Below, piece by piece: positions 11,749-18,904 of a stretch of 64,000 bases of DNA (positions are counted from its first letter, which is position 1; every line of letters starts with the position of its first letter). The position numbers and the translations under genes are program-made. The notes beneath the pieces were generated by a model. That model saw only the letters and a program-made list of their open reading frames with translations. It did no database searches and was not told the DNA's origin. Location of the stretch: assembly GCF_038025025.1 (NCBI RefSeq), contig NW_027117348.1, forward strand, positions 1-64,000, read 5' to 3'. This DNA comes from Phyllosticta citribraziliensis (taxonomy: Eukaryota).

Positions 11749-14700
11749 CTACTCCATGTCTTCCGGCACCCACTCCATCCCCGGATAGCTGGTGGCGCGC
11801 ATGGTAATCTCTTCGCTTCCTCGTCGCCCAACGCCCGTGTCCGCCAGCTCTGCAACAAAAGACTGCTCGCTTTTGCCAGAGTTGGCAACGACTCCGCTAG
11901 AAGCAGGCTGAGGCGGCGAGATCGCCACGCCAGCGCCTTTCAAAGGGGTCTCTGGGTCCGTGTTACGATGCTCGCGAGAACTGAAGCTATCGGGAATGTT
12001 CTGGTTCTTTACAGGGCCCTGCGAAAAGGTTGGAGACGCAATGCCCCGACGCATGTCGACCGCGCGATGCGGACCAGGAAGACGCGGCGCCACGTTGCGG
12101 CGGCCAACAGGCACTTGCGACAAGCTGGGACTTGGGATCCGCGAAGGTCCAGCCCTCGGAGTCTGCACCTGCGGCTGCGAAGCGGCGCCGATTCCCTGAA
12201 GTGGGCTAGAGTTTGCCCGAGCAATGCCTCGATACGGCGGATTCCTGTTGGGGTAGCTGAAGATTTTCGAAGTGCTCGGCTGCGGTATGCCTGTCGTCGC
12301 TCGAGCGTAGGGAGAGTCATCGGGAGGAGGGAGAAGAGGGTTGGCGCGAAGGGGAACCTGCGGTGGTACATGGACACTTGCTCTGCGGTTCTGCGGCTGC
12401 GCGGGTCTCGCCTGTGGCAGATGGCTGCCCTGGACCTTTTTCCCCTCTGCGCTGTCAGGACCAGCGAAGATGCCCACCGACGACCTCCTGGGAAGTTGGG
12501 CGGCGCTGGAGGCATGTTCCTGGGGCAGTGCCGATTTGCGGTGGTACCATGATCCCTCGGGAAAGTGGTTCTGCTTCTTTTTGGCGGGCGATTGAAGCAG
12601 AGTTGGAATTCCGAGAGACGCAGACGGGAGTCCGTATTTGCCTCGTCCAGCAGAGCCCGCTCTCTGCTCGCCGATGGGATCCTTCAAGATACCCTCGTTC
12701 GCTTGGGCCTTGTTTGCGCCGCTCGGTTCCAAAGACTGCGGCTCGTCCACCATCCGAGTATCCAAAATCGCCATTGCAGTCACCGGACGCGACGACGACG
12801 TCAGAGACTGTTTGACCTCGTCCTCGCCGCCTTCCTGCCGCTTGCTGGAGCGGCGATAGACCTTTGCAATCTTGGAGTTCTTCTTGCTGGGTTTGCTTTC
12901 CTTTTCTTTGTTCTTTTCCAACTTTGCGCTGTCTTTGCTCTTCGACTTTTCATCCTTTGTACTCGAATGGCGGAAGATGGAGCCCAGAATCGACCCGCGC
13001 TTCTTCTTCTCCTTGGTCTTGGACTGTTCAGCAGGCGCGGGGATTTTGGAGACAAGTCCGGGAGTCTTGCTCGGCGTGCTCGCCTCGTCAGCGATCGGGG
13101 CCTTTCGCTGCTCAGAGCTGTCGGCCTTCGCTTGCTGGGCCGGCTCAGGATTCCGGGGCTGCACTGGAGTGACGGGAAGTATTTCGTCGGGGCCCTTCTC
13201 GGTGTGAGACGCCTCGCTCTTGGACCGAGCTGCTCGGTTTCCCAAGATAGGCCACGTCTTTCTCCACGATTTGGACTTTTCGCGAACAGGGACTCCTTCC
13301 GACACTTGGAGCGGATTTGAAGGCGCGGTCAAGGGCCTGCTGTCAGTCTCCGCCGCAACTCGCGATGGATGGGCCGTTGCTGGTCGTCGATCTACCAGTG
13401 GCAGATTGTCTCTCTTGGGCGGAGCCTCGAATTTCGGCGCCACTGGTGCGATCTGAGTCTGTTCAGGCTGTGCGCTCTCCTGGGTCTCTTCTTCGATGGG
13501 ACTCCCTTCCGCTGGCTGACTTTCAGCGGCGAGACCATCAATTTCAGGTTGCTTGACGATCGATTCGACCTTTTGATCAGACGTCGCAGCGTCGACAGGC
13601 TGTTCGCCTGTTGGGAGCTCGTCCTGTGAGAGCTTCGGTTCCAATTTCGCTTCCGTCGAGTCAAAGTCTGCCATGGATAGCTCGCCCGCAATGTCCTCAA
13701 TCGAAGCCAGAGACATGCGTTTTCTCTGATCCGCAGGCTCGGGCTCTTTGATGGTTTGCAGCTGTTCCATGTCTCTGGGCGACTCGAGGCTGAGCTGATA
13801 CATTGCAGAGTCGCGGCGACTGTCGGGTTCGATTACTTTCCGCGCTGGCTGTGGGCTGGCATCCAAAGCCGGCGACCCTGGCGAGGGTTGGGCGACGGAG
13901 ATTTCTTTCTGGCTTTCGACCTCTGCAGAGGTTTCTTCGCGTTCGTTGCTTTGCTCGTCCACGTTGCTTTGCTTGTCTTGATCGCCCTGCTCTTCAGATT
14001 CTACAACCTCAACGGTCTCCCTATCCAGGGGCTCGTCTTCCAGGTTTGTACTGAGCTTTGCAGGTTCCTCAGCGCGGACCTCATCTTCTGTTTCTTCCGG
14101 CGCCGCCTCGTCTTCAGTCTCGCAAAAGACCTCAGCTTCCTTCTTTTCGGTCATCGCATCTATCTGCGAGCTGGCGTCGTCATCAGCATCGGTGCTCGGG
14201 TCAATGATTTCGTGGACAGAGGCGGCCCGTTGGGTGGACTCCGCCGAAGAAGCGGTCCGGACAAGAGCCAGGTCGACACTGTGGTCCTCATTCCTCGATT
14301 CGCCGCGGAGCGCACTCTCTCGACCCGGGTCCAGAAAAGACAGCTCGTCGTCTGCAAAACTTTCGTCGTCGCCATCGGGCAGCGGGAAGAATTCAGGATC
14401 AATGTCGTCTTCATCGTCGCTGGCCTCTGACGGCAGAAACTCCATGCGCCAGGCCCAATCGTCCACAGAAAAGGCAACTGGCCTTGCTTCATCAAAAGCA
14501 GTCTCGCGCGGCGGTGTGGGAATGCCGCCCGTCATCTGGCTTTCTGCGCCGTCGCGGCCTTGGTCTTGGAGCTCCTGAGCGCCATTGCTGACGAGGTCGC
14601 AGCTCAGCGGGCTGACTGACCCTGAGCGAGGCGCATCCCAATGGTTTCTCTCAGGCTGGTCTCGTTCGCTTGGCTGGAAGCTGGACAGCGATTGAGCCAG

Positions 14701-15267
14701 TTCCTTGTCGTCTGAACCCAAGTGTGGCGGATGAGTGGCCGTCGGAGAGGCTGCCTTCGTCTCGGAACCGTAATCAGGCGAGGGGAAATAGCTGTCCTTG
14801 TCTGTGATGCTTGGATCTGTCGCGCTCCCGGAACGCGCACTGCTCACGGTATTGAGTTGCTCTTTCGCGACGCTTTTCAGAGCCGTTTCAGGCGACGGCG
14901 AGGTTGGTGTGGCCGTCACATTCTCTGCGTGCGTCTGGGCCGTCAAGACTGCTGAAGGAGCTGTTGTGAGTCGTCGCAGAAAGGCAGGCCTCTTGTCCCT
15001 TGTCTCTGTCTGTTGTCGGGGAATGCCAATCGGTGCGCTGGATGCTGGTGCCGCTTGGGTCGGCAAATCGTCAAATGTTGTTGGGGGTGTTGGAAGACCA
15101 TCGTTGAATTTGACATTGTTCGTTTCAATCGCGAGCGCACTGATGTTGGCCGACTCTGTTACATCACTCGGCGGGTCCTGAACTGGATCCCCCGCTGCGA
15201 TAGCTGGATCCTGACTTTTGGCACTGTCTTCGGCGGGAGGGGCAGGGACGGACTGCTCGTTGCCCAT
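11749..15267 (-). CDS. Large low-complexity protein (~1170 aa), N-terminal MGNEQS myristoylation-type motif, C-terminal MRATSYPGMEWVP
   Basis: 3.5 kb uninterrupted ORF; acidic middle region, Lys-rich patch. Confidence 0.85.
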   Translation of the reverse strand: MGNEQSVPAPPAEDSAKSQDPAIAAGDPVQDPPSDVTESANISALAIETNNVKFNDGLPTPPTTFDDLPTQAAPASSAPIGIPRQQTETRDKRPAFLRRLTTAPSAVLTAQTHAENVTATPTSPSPETALKSVAKEQLNTVSSARSGSATDPSITDKDSYFPSPDYGSETKAASPTATHPPHLGSDDKELAQSLSSFQPSERDQPERNHWDAPRSGSVSPLSCDLVSNGAQELQDQGRDGAESQMTGGIPTPPRETAFDEARPVAFSVDDWAWRMEFLPSEASDDEDDIDPEFFPLPDGDDESFADDELSFLDPGRESALRGESRNEDHSVDLALVRTASSAESTQRAASVHEIIDPSTDADDDASSQIDAMTEKKEAEVFCETEDEAAPEETEDEVRAEEPAKLSTNLEDEPLDRETVEVVESEEQGDQDKQSNVDEQSNEREETSAEVESQKEISVAQPSPGSPALDASPQPARKVIEPDSRRDSAMYQLSLESPRDMEQLQTIKEPEPADQRKRMSLASIEDIAGELSMADFDSTEAKLEPKLSQDELPTGEQPVDAATSDQKVESIVKQPEIDGLAAESQPAEGSPIEEETQESAQPEQTQIAPVAPKFEAPPKRDNLPLVDRRPATAHPSRVAAETDSRPLTAPSNPLQVSEGVPVREKSKSWRKTWPILGNRAARSKSEASHTEKGPDEILPVTPVQPRNPEPAQQAKADSSEQRKAPIADEASTPSKTPGLVSKIPAPAEQSKTKEKKKRGSILGSIFRHSSTKDEKSKSKDSAKLEKNKEKESKPSKKNSKIAKVYRRSSKRQEGGEDEVKQSLTSSSRPVTAMAILDTRMVDEPQSLEPSGANKAQANEGILKDPIGEQRAGSAGRGKYGLPSASLGIPTLLQSPAKKKQNHFPEGSWYHRKSALPQEHASSAAQLPRRSSVGIFAGPDSAEGKKVQGSHLPQARPAQPQNRRASVHVPPQVPLRANPLLPPPDDSPYARATTGIPQPSTSKIFSYPNRNPPYRGIARANSSPLQGIGAASQPQVQTPRAGPSRIPSPSLSQVPVGRRNVAPRLPGPHRAVDMRRGIASPTFSQGPVKNQNIPDSFSSREHRNTDPETPLKGAGVAISPPQPASSGVVANSGKSEQSFVAELADTGVGRRGSEEITMRATSYPGMEWVPEDME

Positions 15268-15826
15268 ATCGACGGACACAAATCAACACTTGGGAAAAAT
15301 TCACAACGATGCAGCCCTGGAAGGGTTGCAGGATTTATTGCAGCAACCACGGCAAGGTGGTGCGCGTCTGGCGGTATATCAACATCATGCTGCACCAACG
15401 CCACACGGGACCCTTACGCGAAGATCGCACCCTTTCAACTAAATATCCGCTATCGGCAACTTATCAACGCCGTTCGAGATGGACTGATGGCGACGAGCAG
15501 CGGGGCCCTCTATCCAAGCATCAGCATGATCGCCATACACCGCCTGTTGCCCAGTTCCCTCTCCGGTCCGAGCACGCTCAGCGCCTCACACCTACTTGGT
15601 CTCGCACCTCACGAGCATCTGCCATTGGTCCAGGACGGCCAACACACGCGTAGCCGTGAATCTCGTGACATCGGATCCGTCGGCCAAACCAGGATGGCTG
15701 CATCCTACATCATTTTCTCTACATCGATCGCAACTGCAGCATTGCTTCTGTCAGTGTCAGCACTCGGCACGAACACGATATTCGCAAAACTCCGATACCA
15801 TTCATAGACCTACCTATCGCCAGCAC

Positions 15827-16819
15827 CTACATCCAACTGTCCGACACACCAATGTACCTCTTCAGGTCGACCAGCGCGTTCCTGAGGTTGACGAGGTTGT
15901 TCTCCGTCTGCACCCTTCCAGCCTCACCGGCGTACGGAAAAGTGAGGCGGCGCTCCATGAGCTTGATGGCCTCAATGAAAGCGTCGACCATGTCGACTCC
16001 AACGGTGATCCTACTGTTCTTGCTCGTCCGGAAGGCAATCCAATGACTCATCATGCGCACCGCATTGTCCCGCCTCGTCTTCTCGCCTCTGACCAAGGCG
16101 AAATCCTCGGGGGTCTGTCTGTCCTTTGGCATGGGAAACTTGGCCAGCTCGCACAGGGGACACAGGCAATCGAAGCCGTATTCTGCCTTCAGAATGGCTC
16201 CTCTGCTTGCCTGCTTCTGTCCGTCGACTGCGCAGTAGCAGGTCGTGATCTCCTCGCCGGCAACAATGTCCCTGACGGCTTCCAACGCCTGCACGCCGCG
16301 CTCGAGTTTGTAGTCGTAGCCCGCGTTGTGCAGGCAGGAATGGTTGAGCCTCGATTGCTCGACAAAAACTGCAGAAGCAACATTACCTTCATCCACAGCG
16401 TAGCTGTTGGTCCAGGCCACGCCGGCTACACGAGAGATGAGCGTCGAATAGCTCATGGTCCGCTCGTCCACCTGTCCGGCTTCAAACTTGGCCTTGAGAC
16501 TGTCAAGGGCTTTTTGAATGGAGTGGTCAGACGCGTACAGCGAAAGGAACCTTTCCATTTCCTGCGAAGTCAGCTTGGTGTACTGCTGAAACACCTGCAT
16601 TACGTCCGAGGCGTCCATACCTTTTTCCATGACGAGAATGGGAGACTCCGTCATGATGAAGGTGCCGCGGCAGATGTCGCGTGTCGCGAAGACGGCGGTT
16701 CCGCGGCCTGGGATTTGTCGGAGTTCGTACATGTTCTCGGTCTGGCTGAGAATTCTGGAAAGTTTGCTGTCAACTAACTCAGTACGTCGCGATGCTTTTA
16801 TACTGCCAGAATCTGGCAT
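15827..16819 (-). CDS. SET-domain protein (lysine methyltransferase, Set5/SMYD-like)
   Basis: GRGTAVFATRDI, SRLNHSC, GEEITTCY and post-SET YGFDCLCPLC. Confidence 0.9.
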   Translation of the reverse strand: MPDSGSIKASRRTELVDSKLSRILSQTENMYELRQIPGRGTAVFATRDICRGTFIMTESPILVMEKGMDASDVMQVFQQYTKLTSQEMERFLSLYASDHSIQKALDSLKAKFEAGQVDERTMSYSTLISRVAGVAWTNSYAVDEGNVASAVFVEQSRLNHSCLHNAGYDYKLERGVQALEAVRDIVAGEEITTCYCAVDGQKQASRGAILKAEYGFDCLCPLCELAKFPMPKDRQTPEDFALVRGEKTRRDNAVRMMSHWIAFRTSKNSRITVGVDMVDAFIEAIKLMERRLTFPYAGEAGRVQTENNLVNLRNALVDLKRYIGVSDSWM

Positions 16820-16950
16820 TGTGTGAGAAACGACAGATCATTGTTTCTGAACAATGGCCTGGGTTCAGGCAATGGCTCATTCCATGCATCACCACGCTGT
16901 CTTTGTTCTTCGGGAAAGAGGCGGAATCCCCCTTCTAATTCAAGACTTGC

Positions 16951-18904
16951 CTATTGATACTTCTCTAGAAACTTCAATGCGACCGCAGCATCCTTCTCAA
17001 TCGTCGCGGCATGAGCTTCGCTTCTCGGCTTGAATTGTACCTTGTATGGCAGCGGAGAAAGCGCAAACCCCTCCGAGAAACGCGTTACATCGACGTCGAC
17101 GGGAATCAGTTCGTACGCCCACAAAATCTTGGCCGTCATGCGCCACATGGTGCGTTCCGCCAGATGCATCCCGGGGCAGATTCTCCTGCCAGCGCCGTAT
17201 ACGTAGTGGTGTGGAGAGGGCAAGAGACAAGTTAGTCGATTTGCACGAAGCGAGGACAGGGAGTACTCATCTCTGTTCTCAAATTCGGCGATGCCGGCGA
17301 GCTCTGACGCGAGCCGCGTGTGGTTTTGCCAGCGGTCGGGATTGTAAGACTCGGGGTCGCCGTAGCCGTTCTTCTCGGTGTGGTGGAGGGCCCACACAGG
17401 GACGAAGATGCTTGATCCCTTGGGAATGAACATGCCCTCGTACCAGTCGTCTTCTCTGACGACATGCGGGATGCCGAACGGAACACTGCAATGATTTGAG
17501 ACACTGCTCCAGCCAGCTCGACTGATGGGCAACTCACGGTGGTCCCCAGCGGACGGATTCCTTGACAATGCTGTTGATGTATGGGAGTTGGTCGAAGTCA
17601 GACCACGTTGGAAGTCTGCAAGATTTCAGTTTGCCGTTCTCCAGTTTCGAGGAGAATTCTCACCTTTCAGAACCACACACTTTGTCCAGTTGCTCTCGAG
17701 CCTTCTCTTGAACCTCGGGATGCAGCGAAAGTTGCATCAGACTGGTCAGCATTCCCGTCGACGTCGTGTCCGCCCCTCCTTCAACGAGTGACCCAAGAAA
17801 GTGGTTGAGCTTGTTGCTCGTCATTTCAGTCCCGACATCGATCGTCCCATCAAGAATCCCATCCGCAATCGACGGACGCGTGCCACTCTCCCTGCGACGC
17901 TCCTCGACCAGCGTGCGCGCCTTCACCCACGTCTTATTCATTTCGCGGCCCGAGAAAATGGCTCGGCGCTTCCACCCTGCGAAGCGCTCTGGTATCCACT
18001 TCAAGAAGGGGAACTGGTCGACGGGAGGGTTTGCGCCAATCTCCATTGCCTCTGAAAACATTTCCAGTGCTTTGTAGACGTTCTGTGGCGGTCAGCACGT
18101 TTTCGAGACTTCTGTTGTCGACTCACGTGGCCCCAGAACTCGCCATACGTAGCCGCGCGGTGGCCCCAGACGACGACGTTGGCGACGGAACAGGTCGTGC
18201 GTTTGACGTGCTTGTAAAAGTCTTCCGGGGATTTCAAAAGATCCAGCAGTAGGACCGACATTCTGCACCAATCGATTAGCTGAATCGACCAAATTGATGC
18301 GCGGAAAAACCTACTCGGACTCATGGAGAGGCACGAACTTCCCGTCCTTGTCATCCAAGGTTCGTGGCTTTGCCGTGTTAGCGGTTCTGGCCGCTGCAAG
18401 TGCACCAAGCACTCACCGACAAGACATGCGACGCAATCTTTCTCTGCGACCGCCAGCTGGAAGTGGCGTCCTCGAAAGCGAAATAATGGTTGTGAGTCAC
18501 GAGCCCGCAGACATACTCCTTCTGCCTGTCAGAGTATATCGCGCCCTTTTTGTCGAGCAGGTCATGAATGGCTTTTCTGTCGTTGAGCACAATTGTCGTG
18601 TCTGAGCCCATCTTCAAAGAGTACACGGAGCCGTATTGCTCGCTCCATTTCTTGAGCCTTGGAGTATTTCTAGTCAGAAGATCGTAGCGGAAGTCGGGCG
18701 CAGTACGTACTGTTTGTAAAACGGTTTTGCTGAAAGCTGATGCAGATTCCCAATCACAGGAAGCGTTGGAGGCCCCGGCGGGAGGCGAGGGTCACGACGA
18801 CCCAGCTGCGAAAGCTTATATACCAACGACAAAAACGCAACAAACACAGTGAGCTTCCAGACCAGCCCCGAGGCCAGGCCCTGCGAGAGTGCGACAGTAT
18901 CCAT
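16951..18904 (-). CDS. Cytochrome P450 monooxygenase, multi-exon
   Basis: TM anchor followed by [24 protein letters not shown]-helix; KESVRW (ExxR); PDRW; heme motif [10 protein letters not shown]; several GT-AG introns (e.g. 18658-18710) and one apparent AT-AC intron. Confidence 0.95.
17211..17270 (-). other. Putative non-canonical AT-AC intron (60 nt) in the P450
   Basis: G|ATGAGT...GACTAAC...pyrimidine tract...CCAC|AC; removal gives [17 protein letters not shown]. Confidence 0.7.

Follow-up and report, generated by a model that had tools for sequence, protein, structure and literature searches.

The window, a stretch of 64,000 nucleotides from the start of contig NW_027117348.1 of Phyllosticta citribraziliensis, contains a cytochrome P450 gene on its minus strand, with the start codon of the model at 18904 and the stop at 16951. 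The C-terminal 224 aa of the product match Pfam PF00067 (p450) with 71.7 bits against a cut-off of 22.8. The gene is interrupted by seven introns, of which six have GT-AG ends and the last, located just before the heme-binding loop, has AT-AC ends. The features are as follows.

16951..18904, minus strand: P450 coding region, 8 exons, 531 aa (gene model; all seven joints seen in contigs; identical to deposited protein P0001)
18710..18658, 18416..18368, 18314..18263, 18126..18083, 17663..17616 and 17537..17486, minus strand: six GT-AG introns (gene model and contigs)
17271..17485, minus strand: exon 7, ...PDRW...EFENR plus the G of an Asp codon (gene model; contig pieces)
17211..17270, minus strand: intron 7 of 7, 60 nt, phase 1, AT-AC (sequence; contig joints; protein P0001)
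17265..17270, minus strand: 5' splice site ATGAGT, with exon bases GAG before it (sequence)
17231..17235, minus strand: predicted branch site CTAAC, with the predicted branch A at 17232, 21 nt from the 3' end of the intron (from sequence only)
17211..17213, minus strand: 3' splice site CAC, preceded by a pyrimidine-rich tract (sequence)
16951..17210, minus strand: exon 8, from the AC of the Asp codon onward, with stop codon TAG at 16953..16951 (gene model; contigs)
17170..17199, minus strand: heme-binding loop FxxGxRxCxG, with the Cys codon at 17178..17176 (translation; Pfam p450 match)

Read on the minus strand, 17270..17211 is the 60-nt sequence ATGAGTACTCCC...CGACTAACTTGTCTCTTGCCCTCTCCAC, and the body of the intron runs ATGAGT...CGACTAAC...TTGTCTCTTGCCCTCTCCAC, with CTAAC at intron positions 36-40 and a pyrimidine-rich region following it (TTGTCTCTTGCCCTCTCCAC) that ends in CAC. 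The intron interrupts an Asp codon (phase 1), and its excision yields the motif RDHY before the heme loop and leaves 23 residues from the PERF-like motif to the heme motif, against 43 if the intron is retained. The six GT-AG introns are 44-53 nt long, all end in AG, and start with GTGAGT (three introns), GTACGT, GTAGGT and GTGAGA. The original prediction had described a 60-nt segment running ATGAGT...CTAAC...CAC that starts one base away from the GTGAGT donor used by these other introns (three of the six), and all of these sequence details are present at 17270..17211. It had also stated that there is no AG between the branch site and the heme motif, and the first AG past CTAAC is indeed at position 84 from the intron start, within the heme-motif codons GGC AGG AGA; that excision gives the spacing usual in this type of P450, and 23 residues is the spacing in 40 of the 60 closest homologues among the matches listed; and that retention adds 20 in-frame residues with no stop, with which the translation of the read-through agrees.

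Contigs from three sequencing runs belonging to three studies (X1, X2 and X3) join 17209/17210 to 17270/17271 and skip exactly 60 nt, with zero mismatches, and the excision that the original prediction had proposed to check in transcripts is therefore seen in each of them. A single 3141-nt contig of X1 aligns to the gene in eight pieces with zero mismatches and skips all seven introns, the X2 contigs skip three GT-AG introns in the same records as the 60 nt, and a 433-nt contig of X3, which carries the label of another organism, skips the 60 nt and one GT-AG intron; a fourth run, X4, contributes a single short piece located away from the AT-AC site. Of five public runs with matches these four were aligned; their kind, RNA, is a guess, and assembled contigs were used, not raw reads. 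Because the contigs lack every intron of the gene that they cover, the simplest reading is that X1-X3 represent copies of spliced mRNA. The interior of the AT-AC intron is covered by none of the listed X1-X3 contigs, bearing in mind that assembled contigs drop rare variants. The joint fits AT..AC ends and, shifted by one base, TG..CA ends equally well, because the first base of the intron and the first base of exon 8 are both A. These data confirm that the 60-nt AT-AC segment is a genuine intron that is cut precisely from transcripts and, together with 17 homologous loci described below, put the AT-AC pattern at 17270..17211 far beyond chance. The spliced 8-exon model is identical over 531/531 aa to deposited protein P0001, 'cytochrome P450 [Phyllosticta citribraziliensis]', and the public annotation therefore already uses the AT-AC junction. 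Intron 4 of the same gene (18083-18126, minus strand), a 44-nt intron of the form GTGAGT...GCTGAC...CAG, is also skipped by contigs of three runs.

The C-terminal parts of 18 homologues were aligned with the corresponding window fragment, and metagenome contigs were scanned with the alignment, giving 252 pattern matches and 207 confirmed relatives. Among the best 80 of these 207, which were classified, the phase-1 intron whose presence in orthologues had been put forward as a check is found at the same codon position with AT..AC ends in 17 loci and with GT..AG ends in one (L076, intron 1715-1766, GTAGGA...CAG); the site is contiguous (RD|HY, no intron) in 61 loci, and in one (L061) there is an intron elsewhere, three codons later. 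The loci with an AT..AC intron are:

L001, L002, L003, L008, L012, L013, L016, L049, L056, L059, L064, L067, L068, L071, L072, L079 and L080

With that of the window there are 18 AT-AC introns, 45-77 nt in length, and they share a constant set of signals. The three exon bases before the intron are GAG in all 18, positions +1 (A), +2 (T) and +5 (G) are likewise the same in 18/18, and positions +3 (A; G in the other two), +4 (A) and +6 (T) agree in 16/18 each. A CTRAC motif lies 11-23 nt from the 3' end in every one, the terminal dinucleotide is AC in 18/18, and position -3 is C or T in 16/18. Outside these signals the 18 introns do not align, and conservation among them is limited to the splice signals. 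We infer from the conservation of the protein that the 17 metagenome introns are spliced at their AT..AC ends. As a control, every nearby GT/GC..AG pair that preserves the frame and the heme motif was listed for each intron: no such pair near any of the 18 AT-AC introns gives RDHY, and for eight of the 18 there is no canonical pair that keeps the frame. The same control applied to L076 recovers its true GTAGGA..CAG. The intron of L061 (L061:1685-1732), a relative that falls outside the AT-AC clade, is an ordinary GTGAGT... intron placed after HYG, and it suggests that introns have been gained more than once just before the heme loop.

Deposited proteins carry marks of the same site. When the C-terminal fragment, translated through the intron, was used as a protein query, there were 124 matches, 120 of them listed, and we examined the 60 closest among the matches listed. 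The 40 of these that have the 23-residue spacing also have the motif RDHY.YGAGRR, and the other 20 of the 60 closest among the matches listed are anomalous exactly at the heme-loop site. Three of them, P0009 of Exophiala xenobiotica, P0012 of Ilyonectria robusta and P0013 of Clonostachys rosea, have 16-19 extra residues that start D-K-F, D-K-Y or D-E-Y and end ...H-H-Y, which are exactly the inserts predicted by in-frame reading of G|ATAAGT... or G|ATGAGT...C|AC. In the remaining anomalous homologues there are short, unusual inserts, or part of the heme motif or Cys pocket is missing, as in P0002 (P. citrichinensis) and P0028. The pattern of these sequences is the mark left by gene callers that were forced to GT..AG, and P0004 may be a genuine variant. 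For one third (20/60) of the closest deposited homologues the heme-binding loop is wrong or unusual, a misannotation that touches P450 family assignment, structure prediction and heterologous expression, and the AT-AC site is a handy check of how gene callers treat non-canonical junctions in fungi.

We conclude that 17270..17211 (minus strand) is, with high probability, a constitutively spliced U2-type ('type II') AT-AC intron of a Phyllosticta P450 gene. The 5' site GAG|ATGAGT fits the U2-type consensus everywhere but at +1. Introns of the U12 type have a branch consensus of TCCTTAAC, located approximately 10-15 nt from the 3' end. This box is absent from the 18 aligned introns, in which the motif is CTRAC, and an ATATCC start is found in 0/18; the U2-type identity given to the intron by the original prediction is thus upheld, the signals being U2-type and none of them U12-type.

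Following published work, the major spliceosome would recognise the intron through GAG|ATGAGT and the ordinary CTAAC branch site; in the second catalytic step, in which a G...G pair normally interacts, an initial A and a final C would take the place of the two G bases. We propose that the doubly changed intron still splices because A...C stands in for G...G. Both the snRNPs that would act here, U1, U2, U4 and U6 in place of U11, U12, U4atac and U6atac, and the role of the first and last bases we infer by analogy with U2-type introns of yeast and human, in which, as reported, changing the last base from G to C rescues a G-to-A change of the first, though less efficiently (PMC1557818); this is the compensating pair that had been invoked for the Phyllosticta intron. 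In the same paper the U2-type 'AT-AC II' introns are described as preserved among orthologues, and the U2-type AT-AC class as comprising 24 among ~610,000 introns of five species (PMC1557818). The word 'rare' that had been attached to this intron therefore stands genome-wide, yet does not hold at this site in the P450 subfamily, where AT-AC ends are the rule. The further statement that ascomycetes are not known to have a U12 spliceosome agrees with two reports, one describing U12 splicing as missing in Ascomycota and Pezizomycotina (PMC2846911) and the other describing minor introns as absent from Dikarya and U12 as lacking in Ascomycota (PMC10639083). On the strength of these papers, the host would have no U11, U12, U4atac or U6atac genes. 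The family would then provide a clean example and a natural test of the rule that requires the two terminal bases of an intron to match, as G...G or as A...C, since the A...C pair is unchanged while the rest of the intron has diverged beyond alignment, in organisms that would have the major spliceosome only.

Several other readings of the segment can be set against these data. The joint in the RNA also permits a real intron that is cut one base over, with TG..CA ends, and that belongs to some other non-canonical class; the ambiguity is common to all 18 loci, with exon 8 starting with A. We consider this very unlikely, because the U1 consensus is aligned only by the AT..AC register (GAG|ATAAGT compared with CAG|GTAAGT) and this is the very register in which the intron of the one GT..AG relative, L076, is cut. 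A minor-spliceosome (U12-type) AT-AC intron would account for the terminal dinucleotides and for the short distance predicted between branch site and 3' end in half of the introns (11-13 nt in 9/18), but the 5' sites ATAAGT and ATGAGT resemble the fungal U2-type sites GTAAGT and GTGAGT, none of the 18 introns starts with ATATCC, the branch motif is CTRAC, and U12 snRNAs and introns are both reported to be missing from Ascomycota (PMC2846911, PMC10639083); we regard it as extremely improbable. Finally, the 60 nt may be coding sequence inserted in one lineage and no intron at all, or assembly errors may have put AT and AC at the ends of a GT..AG intron. The reading frame is open through the 60 nt, and deposited homologues P0009, P0012 and P0013 have an insertion at the site; however, contigs of three runs skip the segment, the same end dinucleotides occur in 17 independent loci, a conservation that serves as the check on the end bases of the window, and the three protein insertions start as an in-frame reading of an AT..AC intron would, so that this account is barely credible.

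The original prediction had also proposed that retention of the intron could switch the P450 off by placing 20 extra residues before the heme loop, and this part was not supported by the comparison with other loci. The 60 nt of the window are in frame without a stop, and the reported lower efficiency of AT-AC rescue makes some unspliced RNA plausible (PMC1557818). However, the length is a multiple of three in eight of the 18 introns, and only three of the 18 (those of the window, L001 and L002) are also free of stops, whereas retention would shift the frame in ten of the 18, and a read-through product is thus not conserved. Introns that are divisible by three and lack a stop make up ~9-11% of fungal introns (table in PMC7072748), and because 3/18 is close to this general fungal level of ~10%, the open frame in the window is best explained by chance. 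We therefore consider a regulatory role of retention unlikely, and favour constitutive removal of the intron.

The history of the intron was examined in a tree of 105 rows and 130 columns, rooted at its midpoint. Its rows are 79 loci (L061 was left out), the P450 of the window, 22 named proteins and, stripped of their insert, the three 'retained' proteins. One clade contains all 18 AT-AC rows together with the three retained proteins, L076, 13 intron-less loci and 16 named proteins. Its support is SH-aLRT 98 in a quick tree and 99/98 in a careful tree whose bootstrap was not fully settled. All 48 loci outside the AT-AC clade are contiguous at the site. The 13 intron-less loci within it are genomic DNA and not cDNA, since other introns interrupt their reading frame 64-244 residues upstream of the site; at the site itself the intron appears to have been lost cleanly. 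L076 groups (99/88 in the careful tree) with the AT-AC locus L056 and two chaetothyrialean proteins, which hints at a change from AT-AC to GT-AG, perhaps a reversion in two steps, with the midpoint root leaving the direction either way.

The tree neighbours of the AT-AC loci belong to three classes. L001 adjoins Exophiala xenobiotica (Eurotiomycetes); the Dothideomycetes are represented by the window, by L013 with Mytilinidion, and by L003, L008 and L067 with Teratosphaeria; and L064 is placed with Ilyonectria, Clonostachys, Fusarium and Sporothrix (Sordariomycetes). The two end bases are therefore older than much of the spread of the family over these classes, a spread that may reflect paralogy or gene transfer. 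On 130 columns and a midpoint root, the AT..AC pair would have originated once, in an ancestral gene of this P450 subfamily in filamentous ascomycetes, and we propose that it has persisted because reverting only one of the two ends would disrupt splicing beside the heme-binding loop. Later events would include clean loss of the intron in some paralogues and the appearance of GT..AG in one lineage. An older source can also be imagined, in which the AT..AC ends are left over from a U12-type intron that survived the loss of the minor spliceosome in ancestors of Dikarya, its internal signals having been converted to U2-type and its two end bases locked as a pair. If true, it would be the first traceable 'survivor' of minor-spliceosome loss in fungi, and we give this only a small chance. 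The pattern is better explained by an ordinary intron that underwent both mutations later, because 48 of the 48 related loci outside the clade have no intron at the site.

Protein P0032 of Kockiozyma suomiensis, a Saccharomycotina yeast, is placed inside a group of AT-AC loci and Dothideomycete-like proteins (SH-aLRT 98); gene transfer, old paralogy or contamination could each account for this. To judge by contig names, L001, L002, L005, L011, L012, L014, L016, L018, L021, L051, L059, L061, L068 and L076 come from one assembly, and the P450 paralogues in it show all three states of the site, AT-AC, GT-AG and no intron. L001, L011 and L018 share a single 250-kb contig, and thus the P450 family expands in tandem, with the intron lost copy by copy.

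The U2-type AT-AC class is already established, although very rare, and the P450 intron is an unusually well conserved member of it. The introns of this type in human SCN4A and SCN5A, and in TAF2 of human and Drosophila, have the same AT..AC ends, a 5' site that is otherwise U2-type, and ends that are reported as conserved in orthologues in a class that is very rare (PMC1557818). Unlike these, the P450 intron is very short (45-77 nt), is found in a lineage reported to lack a minor spliceosome, and has been kept across many paralogues and several fungal classes. It shares its terminal dinucleotides with U12-type AT-AC introns but has neither the ATATCC start nor the U12 branch box that make up their consensus, and its host lineage is reported to be U12-free.

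AT-AC introns have been reported in Dikarya before. Ganoderma lingzhi has 13, of which one was confirmed by Sanger sequencing (PMC11590231), Fusarium graminearum has a few (PMC3577648), 69 AT-AC junctions are described for Trichoderma longibrachiatum (PMC4324775), and AT-AC introns were 'hypothesized' in fungal xylanase genes (PMC1557818); in fungal annotations they are reported to be rarer than in those of animals or plants (PMC7072748). These are introns of the same kind, and there too gene callers break a protein domain; in those reports, however, they form lists for single genomes, whereas the P450 intron is followed across a gene family. In the open-access papers searched we found neither an AT-AC intron in a fungal P450 nor one traced through a family of genes; a list of genes with non-canonical sites, Additional file 12 of PMC3577648, might include a P450. 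The one-nucleotide exon of Fusarium CYP621A is likewise described as conserved, atypical, confirmed by RNA reads and able to defeat automatic annotation, but it lies at the PKG motif site and is a micro-exon between introns, not a case of non-canonical ends (PMC12940212). What is new here is the AT..AC pair as a conserved mark of an entire P450 subfamily and, in the sequences compared, a frequent source of wrong gene models.

No polyketide or peptide synthetase is seen within ~12 kb of the P450, and we therefore propose no role in a biosynthetic cluster. On the minus strand at 11752-15282 there is an uninterrupted open frame of 1177 residues, for which there is no Pfam match at E <= 0.001. A SET-domain gene (15830-16837, minus strand) lies next to the 3' end of the P450, and a 5580-nt contig of X2 (depth 272; window positions 16800-17078) covers that 3' end and continues on toward the SET-domain gene, so the two transcripts may overlap or there may be read-through from one to the other.
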